Shown here piece by piece: positions 4,743 through 54,812 of a stretch of DNA of 64,000 bases; position 1 is the stretch's first letter, and every line of letters starts with the position of its first letter. The stretch spans positions 105,408 through 169,407 of the forward strand of contig CAYOLW010000001.1 of NCBI GenBank assembly GCA_964404925.1, given 5' to 3'. The position numbers and the translations under genes are program-made. The notes below the pieces were generated by a model. The model made no database searches and was not told where the DNA came from. It worked only from the letters and a program-made list of their open reading frames with translations. This stretch comes from an uncultured Candidatus Saccharibacteria bacterium (GTDB lineage Bacteria; Patescibacteriota; Minisyncoccia; Phycocordibacterales; UBA9973).

Positions 4743-5288
4743 ATGGCAAAACAAGAAGAACAAGGTAAAAGGAATTGGTATGCAATCCACACTTATGCTG
4801 GTTATGAAAATGTGGTTTTGCGTAATCTAAAACAGCGTACTGAATCCCTGGGCATGCACGATAAGATTTTTAATGTGATTGTACCAGTTGAGAAGAAAAT
4901 CAAAATTAAAGCTGGTAAAAGAGTAGAAGTGGAAGAAAAGATATACCCTGGCTATGTGCTCGTAGACATGATTGTAACCGATGATTCTTGGTATGTAGTA
5001 CGTAATACACCTCGTGTGACAGGATTCGTTGGTGCAGGAGTTAATCCTGTTCCACTTGCTAAAGAAGAAGTTGATTATCTCTTTAAGAAAATGGAAGGCA
5101 ACCAAACTAAACACAATATTGATTTGGCTATTGATGAATCAGTGCTTATTACCGACGGACCGTTTAAAGATTTAGAAGGTAAGGTAAATACAGTTGATAA
5201 CGAACGCGGCAAGGTAAAAGTATTAGTATCAATGTTCGGTCGTGAGACACCAGTAGAACTTGATTTCTTGCAAGTTAAGAAGATATAA
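4743..5288 (+). CDS. nusG: Transcription termination/antitermination factor NusG
   Basis: It begins MAKQEEQGKRNWYAIHTYAGYENVV, has an NGN domain and a C-terminal KOW motif (GKV..V...ERGKVKVLVSMFGRETPVEL). The start is the ATG at 4743. Confidence 0.9.
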   Translation: MAKQEEQGKRNWYAIHTYAGYENVVLRNLKQRTESLGMHDKIFNVIVPVEKKIKIKAGKRVEVEEKIYPGYVLVDMIVTDDSWYVVRNTPRVTGFVGAGVNPVPLAKEEVDYLFKKMEGNQTKHNIDLAIDESVLITDGPFKDLEGKVNTVDNERGKVKVLVSMFGRETPVELDFLQVKKI

Positions 5289-46376: not shown

Positions 46377-47570
46377 ATGGGAAAATTATGTTATTATAAC
46401 AATATGCAAAAGGAAACTGTTCCATTTGTGAATAAAAATAATCTAGTTTGGTGTCGAGAAAAATCTGGTTTAACTATTAATCAGGTCTATGAAAAAGCTA
46501 AGTGGTCATCAAAAACTCATAAAATTGAAAAATGGGAAGCCGGTTCAGATTTTCCTACCATAGATGACTTAAAAAAGCTTGGTAAAATTTACAAAAAGGC
46601 TTGGACACTTTTTGTTTTTGAGCAAGATTTGAAAAATTTAGATTTCATGGTAATGAAAGATTTTCGTGGCTGTATCTCAGATTCTAAAGGGGAAGAAAAG
46701 AGTGAAATAATTCAGTTTCTAAATGAAATAGAACGTCGACAACTATTTGTCATTGAATTCTCTAATGCCCTTGAAATTATCGGTAATAAAAGTTTTGGTT
46801 CGTTGACTGAAGTAAAGGATGTTAATGTCGTTGCGAATAAAATAATCCAAAATCTTAATCTTAATATGGAAGAATTTCGCAGAAAGAAAACAAGATTAGA
46901 AGCCTTAAATTTCTTGCAAGAAGAATTGGGGCGAAATAATATATTTGTTTCTTTTTCTAGCACCAATCCACATAAAAAAATAAGTCTTGAACATATGCGT
47001 GGGGTTTTAATGAGGTCTTTTCTGGCACCAATTATTGGTATTAATTCTGCAGAAAAGTCGGTGGGCGCTAAGATTTTTACTATTTTTCATGAGCTTGCAC
47101 ACCTGTACACAGAAAAGGTTGATCATGATGTTTTAATTGACACTATTAATTTTCGAGATTTAGGTAAGCGTAATACAAAAGAGGGCTTGTGTGATCAGAT
47201 AGCTGCAGAAATATTAGTACCCCGTAATATTCTTGTTGAATTAAAAGGCACTTCATTCAATCCAGAGATTGTTAAGAAATATTGTATTTATTTGAAAGTT
47301 AATCGTGAGCCTTTTTTAATACGTGCAAAAGAACATGGTTTAATTAGTGAACAAGAATTTAACTCATTAAAAAATATTTCGGTTGAAGAACAAATTAAAA
47401 AAAATAAAAAAGGTAATCCGGATGGCGGTTTATTGCATATTTTGAAAAATGGCAAGTCTTTTATGCGGCTTGTTAATTCTCTTTACTCAACAGGCCTAAT
47501 ATCATATTCACAAGCACTAGGTGCTTTAAATACAAAATCCAATGCTTTTAATAAATATGTAATTAGATAG
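46377..47570 (+). CDS. XRE-family HTH domain fused to an ImmA/IrrE-family (COG2856, DUF955) zinc metallopeptidase
   Basis: The N-terminal HTH reads LVWCREKSGLTINQVYEKA. HELAHL (HExxH) lies in the C-terminal domain. Confidence 0.7.
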   Translation: MGKLCYYNNMQKETVPFVNKNNLVWCREKSGLTINQVYEKAKWSSKTHKIEKWEAGSDFPTIDDLKKLGKIYKKAWTLFVFEQDLKNLDFMVMKDFRGCISDSKGEEKSEIIQFLNEIERRQLFVIEFSNALEIIGNKSFGSLTEVKDVNVVANKIIQNLNLNMEEFRRKKTRLEALNFLQEELGRNNIFVSFSSTNPHKKISLEHMRGVLMRSFLAPIIGINSAEKSVGAKIFTIFHELAHLYTEKVDHDVLIDTINFRDLGKRNTKEGLCDQIAAEILVPRNILVELKGTSFNPEIVKKYCIYLKVNREPFLIRAKEHGLISEQEFNSLKNISVEEQIKKNKKGNPDGGLLHILKNGKSFMRLVNSLYSTGLISYSQALGALNTKSNAFNKYVIR

Positions 47571-47574
47571 ATTT

Positions 47575-48063
47575 ATGGAAGTAAACAAATCAGCACTATA
47601 TGTTTTCGATAGTAACTGTTTTATTGAGCCTTGGAATAAGTTTTATTCTTACGAATTTTTTGAGCAATACTGGGATAAGTTTTTAAAAAAAAGTTTAAGC
47701 GATTGCACAGTCTTAATTCAAGAAGAAGTTTATAATGATATTCTAAAAAAAGATGATGGTCTTAATCGTTGGTTGAAAGGTTTTAAGATAGAAATTGTTA
47801 AAACTGATATAAGTATAACTCGAGAAGTTGCGGCTATAAATAATAAATTCCCAAAGTTGACAAAAGAATATAGTGGTAGATCTTTTTCAGATCCTTTTGT
47901 AATAGCACTAGCTAGGTTTCGTAAGGCAACAGTTGTAACCATGGAAGATTTCGGTAGTGAAAATAAACCAAAAATACCATTTGTATGTGACCAAATGGGT
48001 GTTAAATGTATTGATTTATTTAAGTACTTAAAGATTGAAGGCGTATCTTTTTCAATCAAATAA
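47575..48063 (+). CDS. DUF4411-like PIN-like nuclease-fold protein, partner of the ImmA/IrrE gene
   Basis: YVFDSNCFIE, SDPFVIALA and VVTMED fit the PIN-like acidic-residue pattern. It lies 4 nt downstream of the ImmA-HTH gene. Confidence 0.6.
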   Translation: MEVNKSALYVFDSNCFIEPWNKFYSYEFFEQYWDKFLKKSLSDCTVLIQEEVYNDILKKDDGLNRWLKGFKIEIVKTDISITREVAAINNKFPKLTKEYSGRSFSDPFVIALARFRKATVVTMEDFGSENKPKIPFVCDQMGVKCIDLFKYLKIEGVSFSIK

Positions 48064-48239: not shown

Positions 48240-49517
48240 CTACAGGTTCTTAAAATAAAAGTCTGGCAGAACAACTTTTAATTCTTCGTTAGCTGCACGA
48301 TAGCGATCTGGCGAGTGCGGAGTTGATGGATATTTATCAACGTCTTGAGGATTAGGTCTTTCTATTAGTTTTATGTCAAAAGTATTAAGTATTTCCTTGT
48401 CTTCACCGACAACTAACCTGTTTGTATATTGTAAGTAGGAATTGTTTGTTATTAATATAAGTCTAGCTATTTCATTTCCAGCACTAATAGCTTTTACCTT
48501 AACAAACTGTTTAAAGTAAGAGTAATTATCTTGGACATTAATGTATTTTGATGCTGTAACAGCAATACATATAAGTCTATTAGGTTTATATCCCAGCCTT
48601 GATAGTTCAATGTAATCAAGATTGGCTTGTCTTAATATGAGCTTTATTTTTCTCATAGTCATTTCGGGATATCTTATGTGTATGTACTCTAAAAACTCAG
48701 TAAGTTTTTTATCTTCACCTATAGTGTCAGTTGGATCAGCTTCAAATACATCAGCTACAAAATCTTGTAAATTACTCTCACTTTTTTTATTAAAAAACTC
48801 AATATAATCAAAACATTTTAAGTATGTTTCAATGTTGTCTTCATAACTTTTATTTGATACAGCAACAATAACGGTAACTTGTTTTTGTAAGGTATTTTTA
48901 GTTAAAAACTGTCTAAATGTTTCTAAAAAGAAAAGTCCATCTGGTCCTGATCTATCTATGTCTTCAATAACAAAAACTATCTTATCTTTATCCACTGCAT
49001 TAATAAGTGAGGTAAAAATATCTTGTATTTCAAACACTCGTCTTGCTGGAGACTTATCAGCAAAGTATTCAAGATTTTTTACAAGTCCAAATAGTGGTTC
49101 AAGTAACTTAGGTAACCCAAAAGCAGTAGTTGCAACATTCAAGATAGAACCAGCGGTATTTATTCCTAGTTTCTTGTCTTTACCAGATTGCCCATCAACT
49201 TCTCGTTTAACTTTTTCAAGCATACTTAGTTGTCTAGCTGTTTCAAGGATTAGCCCGTCCCATAATTCTTTGCGCTCTGGAAATTGCCAAGCATCAAAAT
49301 GGACCCACTGCTCAGTTGTTTCTTTTTGTTTTCTAATCTGTTCAATCAAGGTACTCTTTCCAACACCAAAAGGTCCGATAATTCCTATTATTTGAGAACC
49401 TTTCTTTGATTGCAACTTCTCAGTTAGCGTACTTACCGAAGAAGAGATATTAAGATAGTCTTTATCAGAAACTTTTTCTTCTAGTAAATCAACATTTTTT
49501 ATAAAACCATTTTTCAT
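48240..49517 (-). CDS. KAP-family P-loop NTPase
   Basis: IGIIGPFGVGKSTL (Walker A) and IVFVIEDIDRSGPD (the KAP-type DDLDR Walker B) are present. It lies 15 nt downstream of the Abi-alpha::Nudix gene. Confidence 0.7.
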   Translation of the reverse strand: MKNGFIKNVDLLEEKVSDKDYLNISSSVSTLTEKLQSKKGSQIIGIIGPFGVGKSTLIEQIRKQKETTEQWVHFDAWQFPERKELWDGLILETARQLSMLEKVKREVDGQSGKDKKLGINTAGSILNVATTAFGLPKLLEPLFGLVKNLEYFADKSPARRVFEIQDIFTSLINAVDKDKIVFVIEDIDRSGPDGLFFLETFRQFLTKNTLQKQVTVIVAVSNKSYEDNIETYLKCFDYIEFFNKKSESNLQDFVADVFEADPTDTIGEDKKLTEFLEYIHIRYPEMTMRKIKLILRQANLDYIELSRLGYKPNRLICIAVTASKYINVQDNYSYFKQFVKVKAISAGNEIARLILITNNSYLQYTNRLVVGEDKEILNTFDIKLIERPNPQDVDKYPSTPHSPDRYRAANEELKVVLPDFYFKNL

Positions 49518-49532
49518 AACGCCTAAATCTTA

Positions 49533-50933
49533 TTAATTAGATTTAATTATTAAAGTATTTTTTACTTCTTTAAAAATAGCCAACATATCATCACTTAAAA
49601 TTAAATTTATGAACTTCTTTTTGTCTTCTTCAGATAAGTTTGGTAAATCGTCAATTTTCCAAGCTTCAAAACCTTCTGCTTTACCTTCTTCAACTTTTAG
49701 ATCTGAGATAGGACCTTCATAAAGATAGGCATACTGGCTACGGATTGTGTTATTAGTAAGTTTAGTTACCTCATCAAAACTTTCCTTTCTCATTTTTCTT
49801 AGAAAAGTTAGCTTTGAAAGATCAATATCAATACCTGTTTCTTCTTTGCATTCTTTTACAGCGGTTTCTTCATATGACATTTTGGGTTCAACGTGTCCTC
49901 CAACAGTAGCGTCTAATTTATCAGGATAGGTATCTTTGTTTTTTGCTCTATGTTGAAAAATAATCTCTCCTTGAGGCGTAATAAACCAGATATGTATTTC
50001 CCGATGGAGAAGTCCGTCTTTGTGTATTTTTGAACGAGTTTGAAGACCCACTACTTTATCATCCTCATCAATTACCTCAAGGATTTCTTGGTATTTATAA
50101 TTTGATATTGAGTAGTGTTCTTTTAACCACTCAGTATACCCATCAACCTTTTTTGTTTTCAGATGTTGCAATATTTCTTTACCAGCAACAGAAATTGCAT
50201 AAAAAGTAGGTATTCTTAAATCTGCATTATTTTCTATGATTGGTTCAAAAACAATTTGCTCATCAAAGTAATCAATTATATACGGTAAGCCATCAGGGTT
50301 AGATATATTTCTAGTCATATCGTTTGGTAAAAATAAGCCTAAACTTTGCAGTGCTTGGAGACTACCAAAATGTAAACCTAATCCAGACATCATTTCTTTA
50401 ACATTTTCACTGCCACTGAATAAATCTTTTGGAAGTTGCTCATTATTTAACAATAGCCCAGATATTTTTTCAAAAAGCTCTAGTTCTTTTTTACCTATGG
50501 ATTTTAATGTTTGCAAAGTGCTCATTGAATAAGTTTCAGGATTGTTGTATTCTCCAGCGATTATTTTTGCAATCAAATCTTGAACCTCTTCATTTGAAAC
50601 TTCTTTTGCGTGTTCAAGAAGTCCCCAGAAGACGTCATTGTCATCTTTTATATTATTTTCAGAACTCGTAATCAAGTCTTTGGTTTTAAGTAAAGCATTA
50701 CCCAAGTTGGCATATTGGCGACCCATTTTTTGAGCTTCCGCTTGTAACCAAAAAGGTTTTTCTAAAAGTTCCCATTTTGTTTTAACCTTGTCAGCTTCAA
50801 TATCTCCCTCAGCTTCAAAAACTTTTATGGATTTACCTGTATACTTTGTAATTACAAAATCAACAAACTTATCAGCCACCTTTGTTAAGGTCGCTTTTCC
50901 TAGATCTTTTAATGGTTGAGGTAAATCGCTCAT
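49533..50933 (-). CDS. Fusion protein: an N-terminal Abi-alpha-like (DUF4393-like) domain and a C-terminal Nudix hydrolase domain
   Basis: The N-terminal region has ...DVFWGLLEHAKEVSNEEVQDLIAKIIAGEYNNPETYSMSTLQTLKSIGKKELELFEKISGL, which resembles Abi-alpha. The C-terminus has the Nudix box GGHVEPKMSYEETAVKECKEETGI. The start is the ATG at 50933, preceded by an extended -10 TGTTAGAAT. Confidence 0.6.
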   Translation of the reverse strand: MSDLPQPLKDLGKATLTKVADKFVDFVITKYTGKSIKVFEAEGDIEADKVKTKWELLEKPFWLQAEAQKMGRQYANLGNALLKTKDLITSSENNIKDDNDVFWGLLEHAKEVSNEEVQDLIAKIIAGEYNNPETYSMSTLQTLKSIGKKELELFEKISGLLLNNEQLPKDLFSGSENVKEMMSGLGLHFGSLQALQSLGLFLPNDMTRNISNPDGLPYIIDYFDEQIVFEPIIENNADLRIPTFYAISVAGKEILQHLKTKKVDGYTEWLKEHYSISNYKYQEILEVIDEDDKVVGLQTRSKIHKDGLLHREIHIWFITPQGEIIFQHRAKNKDTYPDKLDATVGGHVEPKMSYEETAVKECKEETGIDIDLSKLTFLRKMRKESFDEVTKLTNNTIRSQYAYLYEGPISDLKVEEGKAEGFEAWKIDDLPNLSEEDKKKFINLILSDDMLAIFKEVKNTLIIKSN

Positions 50934-50998
50934 AATTGCTATTCTAACATTTTTAAGATTAAAAAATAAGTCTAAAAATGGTATAATTAGGTGTATAA

Positions 50999-51370
50999 AT
51001 GGTGGAAAAAACATATAACTTTAATAATCTTAAAATCCGATCAAAAGCTATTGCAAAAGCTCGTATTTCAACTCGTCCAAAGACATATAACTCTAAGAAA
51101 AAACGCTTGGAAGACATACAAAGAGAACTGATAAAATCAGAACTTATAAAAGAAGGATTTTTAGACCAATTAAAGCCACATATGCCAAAAATAACAGAGG
51201 CTGTTATTCAGAGTGCTTGTGATCCAAGCTCTAAGGGTACAAGTGACAGGAGAATTATATTTCAAGCGGTTGGTATTTTAGGAAAAGATACTCAAGTAGA
51301 GCCAAGCCAGACAATAGCGGATGTGTTAGCTGAGATTTTTAGTGAAGAAGTAGTAAACAGTAAAAGCTAG
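50999..51370 (+). CDS. Hypothetical protein (island cargo)
   Basis: An ORF with ATG, transcribed divergently from the Nudix gene and preceded by TGGTATAAT. No family recognised. Confidence 0.4.
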   Translation: MVEKTYNFNNLKIRSKAIAKARISTRPKTYNSKKKRLEDIQRELIKSELIKEGFLDQLKPHMPKITEAVIQSACDPSSKGTSDRRIIFQAVGILGKDTQVEPSQTIADVLAEIFSEEVVNSKS

Positions 51371-51418: not shown

Positions 51419-51634
51419 CTATGTTTTTTCTTTATTAGAAGTTATTTTGTAATAATTTGGAAATAGAACTTTAACTTTGTCTTTTTTAGTGGCTAATTTA
51501 GCCAAAAATGGCTTCATAACGAGCTTTGGACGCTCAGATATAGATTTGTTCCATAACCACTTTTTATAGCTATTTATGACTATTTTACTTAAGAAACTAG
51601 TCATACGACTATTTCTTAGATCTAAGCTTTTCAA
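51419..51634 (-). CDS. Hypothetical small basic protein
   Basis: The ORF overlaps the upstream membrane-protein ORF by 26 nt in another frame. It could be real or a frameshift remnant. Confidence 0.25.
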   Translation of the reverse strand: MKSLDLRNSRMTSFLSKIVINSYKKWLWNKSISERPKLVMKPFLAKLATKKDKVKVLFPNYYKITSNKEKT

Positions 51635-52007
51635 CTTTATAAGCTTTATATAAGAAAAATACGGTAAGCCCAGTAAAAAAGATTATAAAGTAAAGGATAT
51701 CTGGACTACTTGAAAAGTCACCATTTATATCTCTTCTACTTTCAACATATCTAGCTAAAATAATAAAACCTAAAATAATAGAATATATTTTTGTTGTGAT
51801 AACCAAACCAACACTAGCTTTCTTGATAAGTAGGTAAGAAAATATAAATCCTAAAATAGTAAAGACTAAAGGTGCAGCTAAGGATAAGAGTATTAAAAAA
51901 ATAGCTGCAACACCTCTGTTTGTTTTGTGCCATTTAAGACTTTTGTATTGTTCTACTTGCTTTATAAAAGAACTTTCTTTTTGCTTGATTTCTTCAGTTG
52001 TGATCAT
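51609..52007 (-). CDS. Hypothetical membrane protein
   Basis: A 132-aa protein with 3-4 predicted TM helices. Confidence 0.4.
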   Translation of the reverse strand: MITTEEIKQKESSFIKQVEQYKSLKWHKTNRGVAAIFLILLSLAAPLVFTILGFIFSYLLIKKASVGLVITTKIYSIILGFIILARYVESRRDINGDFSSSPDILYFIIFFTGLTVFFLYKAYKVEKLRSKK

Positions 52008-52671
52008 ATTTTTTGTATAAAAAATAGGCTAATAATTTAGCCTATAAACAAATATAGGCAACCCAGTGGGTGCTCACAAAACCAATAGACAAGCTACTGA
52101 TTATGCTTCCCACATAGGTCGCCTATGCTTGGCACAATCAGTAACTAACCCTTTTTAAGGGTTCGCTTGATGTCTTTTTATTGGTTTTGTGAGCAAGTTA
52201 ATGATAACATAATTTGATTTTATTTTTAAGTTATAAATGTTATAATGTACCTAACTAGAGATTTTCTAGTTAGGTCTGACACAACCTTAAGCTCAAAAAA
52301 GACACTTTTTAATTTTTACAATAGTCTTGAGAGTAATAATGTGATTAAGCTAGTTTTGAAACATAAAAATGTACCCACTAGTTAAAAGAAAGCTAGCCGA
52401 GTTGTATGCTTTATTTATGTTAGAAAATGCACAAAGTAGCTTAGTGTGAAGTTGCAACTTATCACCTCGTGATATTTCCAATCAAGTACACAGAGTAAAT
52501 AAATAAATCCTCCTGCCTCTTACAGGAAATCCTTGAAGATAGTATCTCCAAGCCGATTAAGGGTTTATTTGCCACTCTGTCTAGCTGATTAGACGTATCG
52601 CAAAGACACAGCCTTTATGGGCTGTTTTTTTGTTTTATTAGGTGTCACACAAACCCACTATGCCAAACTAA

Positions 52672-52830
52672 AATGACATTAGAGGAGTTTAAAAAACATT
52701 TTAAAAACAAAAATGTAAATGATGAGCGTATAAAAGAAATACGCGATTATTTGTATGCAATTTCAAGAGAAATTGTCTTAAACAATTTAAACGAATACGA
52801 AAAACAGATAAAAGAAAAAGGTGTAAAGTA
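52672..52830 (+). CDS. Small ORF (52 aa) immediately upstream of the recombinase. It could be a recombination directionality factor or Xis-like helper, or a spurious ORF.
   Basis: It runs from an ATG at 52672 to a TAG at 52828-52830 (MTLEEFKKHFKNKNVNDERIKEIRDYLYAISREIVLNNLNEYEKQIKEKGVK). The assignment rests on position only. Confidence 0.25.
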
Positions 52831-52843
52831 GTATAATGAATAT

Positions 52844-54490
52844 ATGAGTAAGCATAAAAAAACTATTGTTAAAAACCCAAAACAGCAATTTTCTCTTGAT
52901 GGATATGTAGGTTTGCCTTATTTACGTGTTTCAAGTAAGAGACAAGAAATTGAGGGTACTGGCTTACAAAGCCAAGAAAAAAGATGTTTAATGGAGCTTT
53001 CTAATATAGGTATTCCTCACGAGAAAAGTTTTTTTGATAGCTATACAGGGGGTGGGGATTTTATGAACCGACCAGCAATGAGATCTTTACTTGCGTATGT
53101 TGATGCGCATCCTCATAAAAAGTTTGTAGTCATTTTTGATGATTTAAAAAGATTTGCTAGAGATACCGAATTCCACTTAAAGCTTAGACTGGCTTTTAAA
53201 AATAGAGGTATAGTTCCAAAATGTTTAAACTATAATTTTGACGACAGTCCAGAAGGGATGTTTGTTGAAACTGTTTTGGCTGCATCAAATGAATTAGAAA
53301 GAAAACAAAACGCTAGACAGGTAGTGCAGAAACAAAAAGCACGACTTGAGGCTGGGTATCGCGCGTTTCCGTCTGTTAAAGGGTACACAAGAGTAAAAGA
53401 TCCTATTCACGGAAAGATTGATATTCAGAACGAACTTGCTATATATGTAAAAGAAGCTTTAGAAGGATTTGCAAGTATGCGTTTTGTTCACAAAATTGAT
53501 GGGGCTAAGTTCTTACAAGAAAAAGGAGTAATAAGTAAAAAACAAAATGCTGATAAAGCAATTTCTACTTTTGATAAGATGCTAAGAGAAGTCTTCTATG
53601 CTGGATACATAGAATACGAGCCTTGGGAGGTAAATAGAAGGGTTGGACACCATAAGAGCTTGATTGGTCTTGATACTTTTAATAAAAACCAAAATAGGCT
53701 GATTAAAAACGCAGTTTCTTTTACTAGGCAAGATATACGAGAAGGGTTTGAGTTAAGGGGATTAATAAACTGTGCATACTGTAATAAAAAGTATACTGGT
53801 GGACCTTCAACTGGTAGGAGTGGTAAAAAATATAATCTATATAAATGCCCAACAGTAGGCTGTGAAAGATATGGTAAAAGTATAAGTACAAAAATTGTTC
53901 ACACGCATTTTGAAGACTTATTAAAAAATATAAAACCGTGCGAAGAAATAATTGATCTAGCTAAGAGTGTTTTTGAAGAAGTGTGGAACGAGGAAATTAA
54001 AAACAGATCAAGCCTGCATAGTTCAATCATTAAGCATAAAAATGATTTAGAAAATGATATCTCAACTTTTACTGACAGAATATCAAAAGCAGTAGAAACA
54101 GGGGCAAGTGAACTTGTAATAAAACAATATGAAAAGCAAATACATAAAATTGCCACTGAATTAGAAGATCTTGAAGAAAACATAAGCTTAGCGTATGACT
54201 ACAGTATTCCTTATAGAACCGCTAGTGAAGAAGTGTTAGGTGTGTTAAAAAGCCCTTATGCTGTATGGAAAAATTACAATCCAGCACAAAAACAAAGGTT
54301 CTTCTCTTTTATATTTGAGACTAATTTAATTTATAGTAAAGAAGAGGGTTATAGAACACCAAGTTATTCTTTACCTATAAGGATATTTGAGGAAATAAGT
54401 ACCTCAAAACCCCTTGATGTGGAACTGGGGGGAATTGAACCCCCGTGCAGAAAGTGTGTGCCAAGAAATCTACATGTGTATTTTGTTTAA
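52844..54490 (+). CDS. Large serine recombinase (resolvase/integrase family). The last ~23 codons are read across the antisense of the tmRNA 3' end.
   Basis: It has an N-terminal resolvase catalytic domain (YLRVSSKRQE with the catalytic Ser; FDDLKRFARD), then a recombinase domain, a zinc-ribbon-like CxxC...CxxC region (CAYCNK...CPTVGC) and a coiled-coil. Confidence 0.8.
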   Translation: MSKHKKTIVKNPKQQFSLDGYVGLPYLRVSSKRQEIEGTGLQSQEKRCLMELSNIGIPHEKSFFDSYTGGGDFMNRPAMRSLLAYVDAHPHKKFVVIFDDLKRFARDTEFHLKLRLAFKNRGIVPKCLNYNFDDSPEGMFVETVLAASNELERKQNARQVVQKQKARLEAGYRAFPSVKGYTRVKDPIHGKIDIQNELAIYVKEALEGFASMRFVHKIDGAKFLQEKGVISKKQNADKAISTFDKMLREVFYAGYIEYEPWEVNRRVGHHKSLIGLDTFNKNQNRLIKNAVSFTRQDIREGFELRGLINCAYCNKKYTGGPSTGRSGKKYNLYKCPTVGCERYGKSISTKIVHTHFEDLLKNIKPCEEIIDLAKSVFEEVWNEEIKNRSSLHSSIIKHKNDLENDISTFTDRISKAVETGASELVIKQYEKQIHKIATELEDLEENISLAYDYSIPYRTASEEVLGVLKSPYAVWKNYNPAQKQRFFSFIFETNLIYSKEEGYRTPSYSLPIRIFEEISTSKPLDVELGGIEPPCRKCVPRNLHVYFV

Positions 54491-54812
54491 AGTTTTAAAC
54501 TCATAGATTATTAAACGAACAAAATATCTTTGAGTCGATTCCTAAGTTTTCGTGAGTTGTGCGGACGGGCAACTCCTTATTCCGATAATATTACACCTTA
54601 ACCCATGCATCGGAAGTCGATGGGCAAGACGCCAGATTCGACTAAGCGAAAGCTGGAGCAAAAGCGAAATCCTTCATACCGAAGTATGGAGATTTCATTC
54701 CTGCCTTAGATGCTAATTTTGCAATTAGACTTTGAACGCTTATTAACGAGCATGCGTTCATCCTCGACATGCATCAAGACACGACGGCTTACTGTCTATG
54801 CCTGGCAGTCCC
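54419..54812 (-). ncRNA. ssrA: tmRNA (ssrA)
   Basis: On the minus strand the 5' end is GGGACUGCCAGG and the 3' end is GGGGGUUCAAUUCCCCCCAGUUCCAC (tRNA-like T-arm). The acceptor stem has the G3:U70 wobble typical of Ala charging. The conserved UGCAUGUCGAGG box and PK1 are present, followed by an internal ORF ending GCU UUC GCU UAG. It is adjacent to smpB. Confidence 0.85.

Follow-up and report, generated by a model that had tools for sequence, protein, structure and literature searches.

A probable mobile defence islet in an uncultured Candidatus Saccharibacteria bacterium carries a singleton DUF2806::Nudix fusion beside a compact KAP-family NTPase

Within a 64,000-nucleotide stretch of the genome of an uncultured Candidatus Saccharibacteria bacterium (hereafter, the window), the region at 46-54.5 kb is probably a small mobile defence islet in which two adjacent genes, one encoding a DUF2806 protein fused to a Nudix domain and the other a KAP-family P-loop NTPase, serve as independent single-gene modules. 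The initial annotation had put these genes forward as a novel defence operon, a pairing that recurred at none of the ~13 DUF2806 and ~84 KAP loci surveyed, and any claim that the parts themselves are undescribed is weakened too, as both families are known single-gene defences (Belisama; the KAP class, PMC13552941). What is new is the Nudix domain added to DUF2806, which is seen nowhere else among the matches listed and is best read as a lineage-specific capture by the DUF2806 gene.

Both genes lie on the minus strand, the fusion gene at 49533..50933 (466 aa) and the KAP NTPase gene at 48240..49517 (425 aa), with exactly the 15-nt spacing originally reported between them. The spacer (49518..49532, minus strand) holds a weak Shine-Dalgarno AGG ~7 nt upstream of the KAP ATG, as read directly from the sequence, and no terminator-like site was found in it; the two genes are probably co-transcribed. 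This arrangement is compatible with a functional operon and in that respect speaks against autonomy. A longer reading of the fusion gene, of 493 aa, begins at 51014, and the start was placed at the Met at 50933 because homologues align from there.

The surroundings are AT-rich, as first noted, with a GC content of 0.29-0.35 across ~46-55 kb versus 0.38-0.45 in the flanks, and their defence-related character has stood up to closer inspection. On the plus strand, a gene for an HTH and Peptidase_M78 (ImmA/IrrE-type) protein (46377-47570; Pfam PF06114, E=2.7e-6) is followed by one for a DUF4411 (PIN-like) protein (47575-48063; PF14367, E=5e-31), which together form the predicted ImmA/DUF4411 pair and show weak RmrA-like and CapP-like matches in PADLOC (46377..48063). 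At the other end lies a large serine recombinase gene (52844..54490, plus strand; Resolvase PF00239, E=1.4e-15, and Zn_ribbon_recom), with CcrB/XisF-like NCBIfam matches under the cutoff, whose 3' end overlaps that of the tmRNA gene (54417..54812, minus strand; ARAGORN; Rfam RF00023, 120 bits), the presumed integration site. The description of the island as recombinase-bounded is thus true of this end only, the opposite end having no recombinase. No att direct repeats were found for the islet, as expected with a serine recombinase, so its left edge (~46.35 kb) is set by GC and gene content only. A separate Logan assembly (run SRR12762285) also contains this 466-aa ORF, identical in sequence and flanked by the same genes.

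The first part of the fusion protein belongs to a family with known anti-phage members. Briefly, Belisama is a single-gene DUF2806 anti-phage cassette from the Vibrio cholerae chromosomal integron, which is toxic and, at high MOI, brings about lysis (bioRxiv 10.1101/2024.07.02.601686), and AbiAlpha, from Enterococcus faecalis prophage 6, causes premature lysis and resembles PF10987 (PMC6356687); homology between DUF2806 and Abi-alpha has been reported in both studies (PMC6356687; bioRxiv 10.1101/2024.07.02.601686). In the window protein, residues 1-283 (50085..50933, minus strand) match PF10987 with E=1e-18 to 3e-19 (68-70 bits versus a gathering score of 24.5) over model positions 12-220 of 221, are 67% identical to a stand-alone protein of 286 aa (P0005), and are modelled by AF2 with pLDDT > 90 at residues 70-280. 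Some 400 relatives of this part are stand-alone proteins of ~285 aa, with a uniform clade length of 280-313 aa, and residues 1-283 are the equivalent of a whole stand-alone DUF2806 protein. The likeness to Belisama, judged at the level of the Pfam family, covers the whole PF10987 model, the stand-alone ~285-aa relatives and their place as cargo of mobile or defence loci; the window protein differs from Belisama, where the stand-alone protein suffices, in the Nudix domain at its C-terminus, which no other member has, and its clade is typical of Patescibacteria-type genomes.

The N-terminal region had originally been called Abi-alpha-like, which holds at the superfamily level, through bridging proteins, and not at the level of the family, as the direct match is to DUF2806 (PF10987) and not to Abi_alpha (PF14337, DUF4393). 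Direct membership was ruled out, since at E<=10 hmmscan matched PF14337 to neither the window domain nor any of seven further clade members, eight proteins in all; the transitive link holds. The bridges are DUF2806 proteins, p58 of phage phi3LM21 (L101) and a Legionella plasmid protein (L102), which match PF10987 at ~1e-31 and PF14337 at 6e-6 and 2e-5 (25-27 bits versus a gathering score of 29), and which match the window domain by tblastn at 6e-6 and 4e-9. A 229-aa viral protein also resembles the domain in Foldseek (2.6e-10, TM-score 0.67). The window domain is a remote relative within the Abi-alpha superfamily, not an Abi_alpha family member. Among 50,697 phage records there is a single distant DUF2806 protein, Legionella plasmids have three, and IMG/VR yielded no relatives of the DUF2806 or KAP families.

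The second part of the fusion, residues 284-466 plus the stop codon (49533..50084, minus strand), contains the C-terminal Nudix domain recognized at the outset, with PF00293 matching residues 310-442 (E=1.9e-12; 47.8 bits versus a gathering score of 21.1). Set against the consensus GX5EX7REUXEEXGU, its Nudix box reads G346...K360-E361-C362-x-E364-E365-x-G367-I368 and retains the catalytic E, EE and G; the Lys in place of Arg is as initially described, and a second substitution that had gone unmentioned, Met for the first conserved Glu, accompanies it, both being common to the nearest relative, P0115. The latter is a Ser_hydrolase::Nudix protein of 373 aa, to residues 185-370 of which the Nudix part is 62% identical. 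With 26 of the 29 clade-conserved residues kept, including E361, E364, E365 and G367, the domain is genuine and, in its catalytic residues, intact.

As the AF2 model of this part is poor, owing to a shallow alignment, its subfamily was assigned from sequence alone, and the matches point to a YfcD/DR0079-like domain, the closest solved relatives being E. coli YfcD (2FKB, 1.5e-8) and Deinococcus DR0079 (1Q27, 1.6e-7). A housekeeping identity, which the initial annotation had wanted checked, is not indicated, as no NCBIfam equivalog cutoff is reached for YfcD, NudI, NudB or type 1 IPP isomerase: the YfcD model gives E=5e-16 and 58.8 bits versus a cutoff of 152, and Idi 50.2 versus 127. The window protein differs from YfcD and DR0079 both in this large shortfall and in the K for R and M for first E of its box, and where IPP isomerase has its catalytic Cys, in the motif CGH, it reads GGH (residues 345-347). 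It shares with the Nudix effectors of conflict systems (the 2TM-Nudix of CBASS and those associated with UG23; PMC9226505) the theme of an exchangeable Nudix domain at or near a defence protein, and differs from them in being YfcD/DR0079/IDI-like, in having no TM helices and in lacking a link to a cyclic-nucleotide synthase or reverse transcriptase; among PADLOC Nudix effectors there was no significant match, the best being PDC-S07 (E=0.017).

The junction between the two parts is sharp. Homology to DUF2806 runs through residues 1-283 and gives way to Nudix homology at ~283; DUF2806 loses only its last 3-5 codons and stop, and on the other side the join falls in the linker between the two domains of the Ser_hydrolase::Nudix parent. 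Two word-index searches, with 120 listed matches each, returned both Pfam domains together only in the window protein itself (P0001), and among the best 150 phmmer matches from 1.84 billion representatives (103 of them below 1e-30) none spans both domains; among the matches listed from ~15 billion proteins, the DUF2806::Nudix fusion is a singleton, unique to this genome. Such a singleton could be a neutral or recent accident, in which a deletion joined neighbouring genes of the island, leaving a normal DUF2806 protein with a Nudix passenger that has no part in defence. The modest loss of codons at the parent's linker is what a simple deletion would produce, and elsewhere the same Nudix clade occurs in fusions with a range of unrelated proteins (VTT, Wzy_C, PemK, MazG, FtsY). 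We nevertheless consider an accident rather unlikely, as the domain, with its conserved residues and whole catalytic box, shows no decay, the frame is open throughout and the second assembly has the identical sequence.

The second gene encodes a member of a family in which transmembrane helices, inserted in or ahead of the P-loop domain, are a classical hallmark. The window protein matches KAP_NTPase (PF07693) with 32.3 bits versus a gathering score of 20 and has the Walker A motif GPFGVGKST and the Walker B motif VIEDIDR, upholding its designation as a KAP NTPase with DIDR. Its P-loop domain (~29-242) precedes a conserved stretch of ~180 aa at the C-terminus without a recognisable domain, and in the alignment of the family, which has more than 120 full-length homologues, the Walker residues G51, G53, K54, S55, E185, D186, D188 and R189 are invariant, as are R289, R296, P312 and Y421 of the C-terminal region. 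No TM helix is predicted, the hydropathy peak (a maximum 19-residue Kyte-Doolittle score of 1.25 at 128-146) lying below the TM threshold in a poorly conserved stretch. Gene 2 thus encodes a KAP-family P-loop NTPase that is short and, by its hydropathy, soluble.

KAP NTPases whose C-terminal regions are of unknown type have recently been shown to act as single-gene defences, in a set comprising EF_KAP and three metagenomic KAP proteins, which depend on the C-terminal region as well as on the Walker B motif and in which the KAP domain is proposed to regulate linked modules (PLoS Biol 2026, PMC13552941). The window protein resembles these in its P-loop with a DxDR-type Walker B, its C-terminal region without a recognisable domain, its link to a serine-recombinase island and its autonomy as judged by comparative genomics. 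It differs, by description, from EF_KAP in being shorter (425 aa) and lacking the two TM helices, and from the set as a whole in that its recombinase is large where theirs is small. Only weak matches, confined to the P-loop, connect it to other defence ATPases in PADLOC (PifA 1.4e-10, QatA 3.5e-9): some 60-160 residues align with proteins of ~600-720 aa, the NCBIfam QatA score is 29 bits against a cutoff of 600, and QatB, QatC and QatD genes are not in the islet, from which QueC-like and TatD-like genes are absent.

Whether the two genes belong together was addressed by a survey of neighbourhoods, covering a limited sample of ~84 KAP-family loci, many on short contigs, and ~13 stand-alone DUF2806 loci; the DUF2806 contexts sampled are seven distinct ones plus one seen in 24 contigs. 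None of the DUF2806 loci has a KAP or Nudix neighbour and none of the KAP loci a DUF2806 or Abi_alpha neighbour, an absence of co-occurrence in either direction which speaks against a two-gene system, recurrence elsewhere being a test that the initial annotation had itself set. The DUF2806 clade is recurrent cargo beside tRNA or tmRNA genes or serine recombinases and near defence genes. A 68% identical member (P0011) stands in 24 contigs in the order SmpB-tmRNA-GIY-YIG-small ORFs-DUF2806-FtsH, another locus (L002) combines a serine recombinase, tRNA-Asn, a C5-methylase, an NgoFVII-type restriction enzyme and a MORC-like HATPase, and further loci have a Schlafen-type helicase (L007), DUF3800 (L004) or a LexA-fused C5 methylase (L006). 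The neighbours of the KAP family vary and often belong to type I R-M systems, with HsdS upstream and HsdR downstream at several loci; others are an SF1 helicase-nuclease, PIN_12, DUF4145, Fic, DUF3800, Bro-N, an integrase, a rhomboid protease (by Pfam) and a GlyRS-like protein (sequence read by eye). In about half of the KAP relatives the gene upstream lies tightly against them, at <=20 nt, co-directional examples being an SF1 helicase-nuclease (L010, 3 nt), PIN_12 (L027, 9 nt) and Fic (L087, 1 nt), while others, such as L013, L039 and L044, have no co-directional upstream gene.

From the half with such short gaps, the KAP protein could work with whichever gene is upstream. It might then form a genuine two-gene system here, as an NTP-driven switch or sensor for the DUF2806::Nudix effector or, generally, for an adjacent upstream effector, a reading consistent with the short, terminator-free spacer, with the lack of a recognisable effector domain in the window KAP protein and with the regulatory role proposed for KAP domains (PMC13552941). 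We hold this to be distinctly unlikely, as the pairing is unrepeated in the survey, the upstream partners include non-effectors (HsdS, the rhomboid protease, the GlyRS-like protein) or are missing altogether, validated KAP defences act as single genes (PMC13552941) and stand-alone DUF2806, as Belisama, acts alone (bioRxiv 10.1101/2024.07.02.601686). A very unlikely elaboration would make the KAP protein a portable NTP-driven switch on adjacent upstream genes, coupled elsewhere to type I R-M subunits, helicase-nucleases, PIN and Fic, and here controlling a unique DUF2806::Nudix effector of abortive infection, the Nudix domain of which destroys an essential diphosphate-linked metabolite. That metabolite might be a prenyl-diphosphate precursor of the cell-wall lipid carrier, its loss leading to lysis, an idea that arises because the Nudix clade is IDI/NUDX1-like and is fused to VTT/DedA and Wzy_C.

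The same Nudix affinities, with a clade that is YfcD/DR0079/IPP-isomerase-like and a Ser_hydrolase::Nudix relative standing among housekeeping genes (L009), would also suit a locus with no defence role, in which the Nudix domain serves nucleotide sanitation or isoprenoid or lipid-carrier turnover and the KAP protein, some relatives of which follow housekeeping genes (rhomboid protease, GlyRS-like), has another cellular role. This is highly improbable given the low-GC islet with its serine recombinase at tmRNA and ImmA/DUF4411 alongside, the recurrence of both families in defence islands and R-M operons, the unreached housekeeping cutoffs and the missing IPP isomerase Cys. The chance that the fusion, a singleton from a metagenome-assembled genome, is an assembly or sequencing artefact, whether a chimeric join or a frameshift masking a stop codon, is practically negligible, as the ORF and its neighbours recur in the Logan assembly, the in-frame join falls exactly at the domain boundary and the window contains no Ser_hydrolase remnant or second DUF2806 copy.

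On our preferred reading of independent modules, a large serine recombinase would have inserted the islet at the 3' end of the tmRNA gene with several such modules aboard. In this lineage only, a DUF2806 protein of the Belisama/Abi-alpha superfamily has lost its last few codons and stop and reads on, in frame, into what was the Nudix half of a Ser_hydrolase::Nudix gene. Its DUF2806 part is presumed to sense and to kill unaided, like the stand-alone proteins of the superfamily, members of which cause premature lysis or abortive infection (bioRxiv 10.1101/2024.07.02.601686; PMC6356687), and the appended Nudix domain may bring in, or tune, the hydrolysis of a small metabolite with a diphosphate linkage, either a nucleotide derivative or, perhaps, a prenyl diphosphate. 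The KAP protein would separately belong to the single-gene KAP defence class, its NTPase activity controlling the fused C-terminal module.

Should the Nudix domain have a part in the phenotype, the fusion would be a natural experiment in which a Belisama/Abi-alpha killing module is combined with a small-molecule hydrolase, and a way into the mechanism of DUF2806. The survey itself identifies DUF2806 genes as recurrent cargo of tmRNA- and tRNA-adjacent islets in Patescibacteria-type genomes, and finds a compact, TM-less KAP family repeatedly inside type I R-M operons, which supports the proposed KAP defence class; on present evidence, the pair is not one to list as a two-gene system in defence catalogues.

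Nudix genes do stand beside NTPase genes elsewhere. Two Nudix-KAP adjacencies encountered in the survey (L035, L042) were put down to chance, one involving an unrelated Nudix subfamily and the other a gene on the opposite strand 2.5 kb away. At L100, however close the match to chance in those two cases, the closest Nudix relative (P0095) follows the gene of a Ppl-like defence ATPase after 13 nt; the view of the Nudix parent as a housekeeping gene, taken from L009, was dropped after this locus was found, and the position of a Nudix domain next to an NTPase may not be wholly accidental.

The initial annotation had proposed a novel two-gene defence operon, pairing an Abi-alpha-like::Nudix fusion with a KAP NTPase, and the gene calls agree with it in describing two ORFs, 15 nt apart, within an AT-rich island: gene 1 (49533..50933, minus strand), encoding 466 aa, and gene 2 (48240..49517, minus strand), encoding 425 aa. 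A longer reading of gene 1 from 51014 was rejected in favour of the Met at 50933, where the alignments with its homologues begin. An AGG lies ~7 nt ahead of the gene 2 ATG, no terminator-like hairpin was found in the spacer and the two genes are probably carried on a shared transcript. GC content is 0.29-0.35 over ~46-55 kb, compared with 0.38-0.45 in the flanks.

In Pfam searches, gene 1 matches DUF2806 (PF10987) at residues 72-270 (E=1e-18) and NUDIX (PF00293) at residues 310-442 (E=2e-12). The description of its N-terminal part as Abi-alpha-like holds at the superfamily level but not for the precise family, which is DUF2806; Abi_alpha (PF14337) did not match gene 1 or seven relatives even at E<=10. 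The connection is made by bridging proteins from a Sinorhizobium phage and a Legionella plasmid, which match the DUF2806 domain in tblastn (6e-6 and 4e-9, respectively) and score ~1e-31 against PF10987 and also 6e-6 and 2e-5 against PF14337, the latter values being just below its gathering score. In a Foldseek comparison, a 229-aa viral protein was similar to the predicted model of the DUF2806 domain (E=2.6e-10, TM-score 0.67). The relationship to Abi-alpha is thus real at this level, and the homology is also described in two papers (PMC6356687; bioRxiv 10.1101/2024.07.02.601686). Among characterized proteins, AbiAlpha leads to premature lysis (PMC6356687), while Belisama, a DUF2806 single-gene integron cassette, is protective in Vibrio cholerae, toxic when over-expressed and associated with unrecoverable lysis at high MOI (bioRxiv 10.1101/2024.07.02.601686).

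The alignments show a clean fusion junction, and in the searches below no second protein shares the domain architecture. Residues 1-283 of gene 1 correspond to the entire length of stand-alone DUF2806 relatives (282-290 aa; 67% identity), and from ~residue 283 the protein aligns instead with Ser_hydrolase::Nudix proteins of 373 aa (their residues 185-370; 62-68% identity), so that a complete DUF2806 gene has taken the place of the hydrolase half in such a gene. The window's own protein was alone in carrying both domains among the matches listed when 5.8 billion clusters were searched by word index; no protein spanned both halves in the best 150 phmmer matches (103 below 1e-30) of an exhaustive search of 1.84 billion representatives; and the best 120 of 396 matches to a DUF2806 profile were all 280-313 aa, the window protein excepted. 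An assembly artefact is unlikely, since the identical gene pair was found in a separate Logan assembly and no remnant of the hydrolase half was found in the window.

The captured Nudix domain is intact: of 29 positions with 80% or higher conservation across 101 members of its clade, it keeps 26, the catalytic E361, E364, E365 and G367 among them. Its nearest relatives are YfcD of E. coli, DR0079 of Deinococcus and the IPP isomerases; the catalytic Cys of the isomerases is absent from it, and it reached none of the NCBIfam equivalog cutoffs. Elsewhere, this YfcD-like clade is fused to VTT/DedA, Wzy_C (O-antigen ligase-like), PemK/MazF toxin, MazG and FtsY/SRP54 domains (proteins P0264, P0300, P0287, P0308 and P0310). 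The two envelope-related partners, VTT/DedA and Wzy_C, might point to a lipid carrier or prenyl diphosphate as substrate; with the IDI/NUDX1-like affinities, they allow a speculative and improbable link to prenyl-diphosphate or envelope metabolism. The parent gene is not clearly housekeeping: at locus L009 its surroundings are housekeeping genes, yet its neighbours include a PemK toxin gene and a fragment of a transposase; at L100 it follows, after a 13-nt gap, the gene for an ATPase of 929 aa with a PADLOC match to the defence protein Ppl (6.6e-40). The latter locus (L100 1-7191), which encodes the closest relative of the gene 1 Nudix domain, a 373-aa Ser_hydrolase::Nudix protein, is a co-directional cluster comprising, in order, an N6/N4 DNA methyltransferase, two unknown proteins, the ATPase (ABC/SMC-type), the Ser_hydrolase::Nudix protein, a 153-aa ORF and an isochorismatase-like protein, and may be an undescribed defence cluster. 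Interchangeable Nudix effector modules are known from CBASS and UG23 loci (PMC9226505). The captured domain may add an activity, temper DUF2806 toxicity or be a passenger.

Gene 2 scores 32.3 bits against KAP_NTPase (gathering score 20), with Walker A GPFGVGKST and Walker B VIEDIDR, no predicted transmembrane helix and a conserved C-terminal region of ~180 aa without a domain match; its weak similarity to PifA and QatA is confined to the P-loop. KAP NTPases whose C-terminal regions have no assigned function act as single-gene defences, for which Walker B and the C-terminal region are both needed (PMC13552941). At 79 metagenomic loci and five others carrying KAP relatives, a clade HMM detected no DUF2806 neighbours, and Pfam found none among 20 KAP-flanking proteins. 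Two Nudix genes lay near KAP relatives, about the chance expectation: the first, at the edge of a contig, falls in a Nudix subfamily unrelated to that of gene 1, and the second is 2.5 kb away on the opposite strand. The sole recurrent context was the type I R-M operon, with hsdS upstream at five loci (L018, L021, L022, L023, L030) and hsdR downstream at eight (L018, L022, L023, L027, L030, L048, L066, L069); soluble KAP NTPases of ~425 aa repeatedly lie between the two, with gaps of a few nt. Other bacteria carry PrrC-type abortive-infection genes embedded at this position. Further neighbours include SF1 helicase-nuclease, PIN_12, DUF4145, Fic, DUF3800, Bro-N and integrase genes, alongside housekeeping genes for a rhomboid protease (Pfam) and, by reading of the sequence, a putative glycyl-tRNA synthetase. 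At L013, a KAP-carrying island, the Rfam model for group I introns (RF00028) matches 654-913 with 76.6 bits, overlapping the end of the serine recombinase gene region.

Stand-alone DUF2806 genes were sampled at L002-L008, seven distinct loci, and in another setting shared by 24 contigs, and none had KAP or Nudix neighbours. The genes around them are those usual in defence islands: at L002, next to a serine recombinase at tRNA-Asn, a MORC-like HATPase with an NgoFVII-type restriction enzyme and a C5-methylase; elsewhere a DUF3800 protein (L004), a LexA-fused methylase (L006) and a Schlafen-type helicase (L007). The L002 island also carries a LOOT RNA (RF03000, 55 bits; 4998-5125). A search of IMG/VR viral contigs found no member of the DUF2806 or the KAP family. 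With no DUF2806/KAP co-occurrence at the sampled loci of either family, the proposed two-gene system is not borne out; gene 1 is a unique domain architecture on a known kind of single-gene defence, and gene 2 a member of another known kind.

Most economically, the islet would have arisen at tmRNA by integration and its defence modules would be independent, the DUF2806 abortive-infection protein and the compact KAP NTPase being two such modules adjacent by happenstance; nothing in it is unusual except that, in this lineage alone, the DUF2806 gene has captured an intact Nudix domain. A large serine recombinase gene (52844..54490, plus strand) marks the edge of the low-GC stretch, and its final ~72 nt (54419-54490) overlap the 3' end of the opposite-strand tmRNA gene (54417..54812, minus strand), which is followed by smpB, so that the islet seems to supply, or overlap, the tmRNA 3' end. 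Neither att-like direct repeats nor a displaced tmRNA fragment at the islet's other end were found. Among DUF2806 relatives present in many contigs, P0011 is the closest (68% identical); its gene is invariably part of an islet that directly follows the tmRNA gene and precedes ftsH, comprising a GIY-YIG gene, four small ORFs and the DUF2806 gene, without a recombinase gene (at least 24 metagenomic contigs; L094 2700-5287, L097 3274-5861); the two islets occupy the same kind of site.

On the side away from the recombinase, the islet carries an HTH+Peptidase_M78 (ImmA/IrrE-type) gene and a DUF4411 gene (Pfam). Of two other islet ORFs, one encodes a basic 123-aa protein (50999-51370, plus strand), runs divergently from the fusion gene and is accompanied by a good promoter-like site (50959-50987); the other, of 132 aa (51609-52007, minus strand), looks membrane-embedded by sequence. 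Neither could be assigned to a family with Pfam, NCBIfam, PADLOC or PHROGs. Upstream of the recombinase gene, ~840 nt (52008-52843) matched no Rfam family at gathering score; the longest ORF there is at most 52 aa, and the region contains several terminator-like hairpins, including 52509-52552 (minus strand) and 52608-52625 (plus strand).
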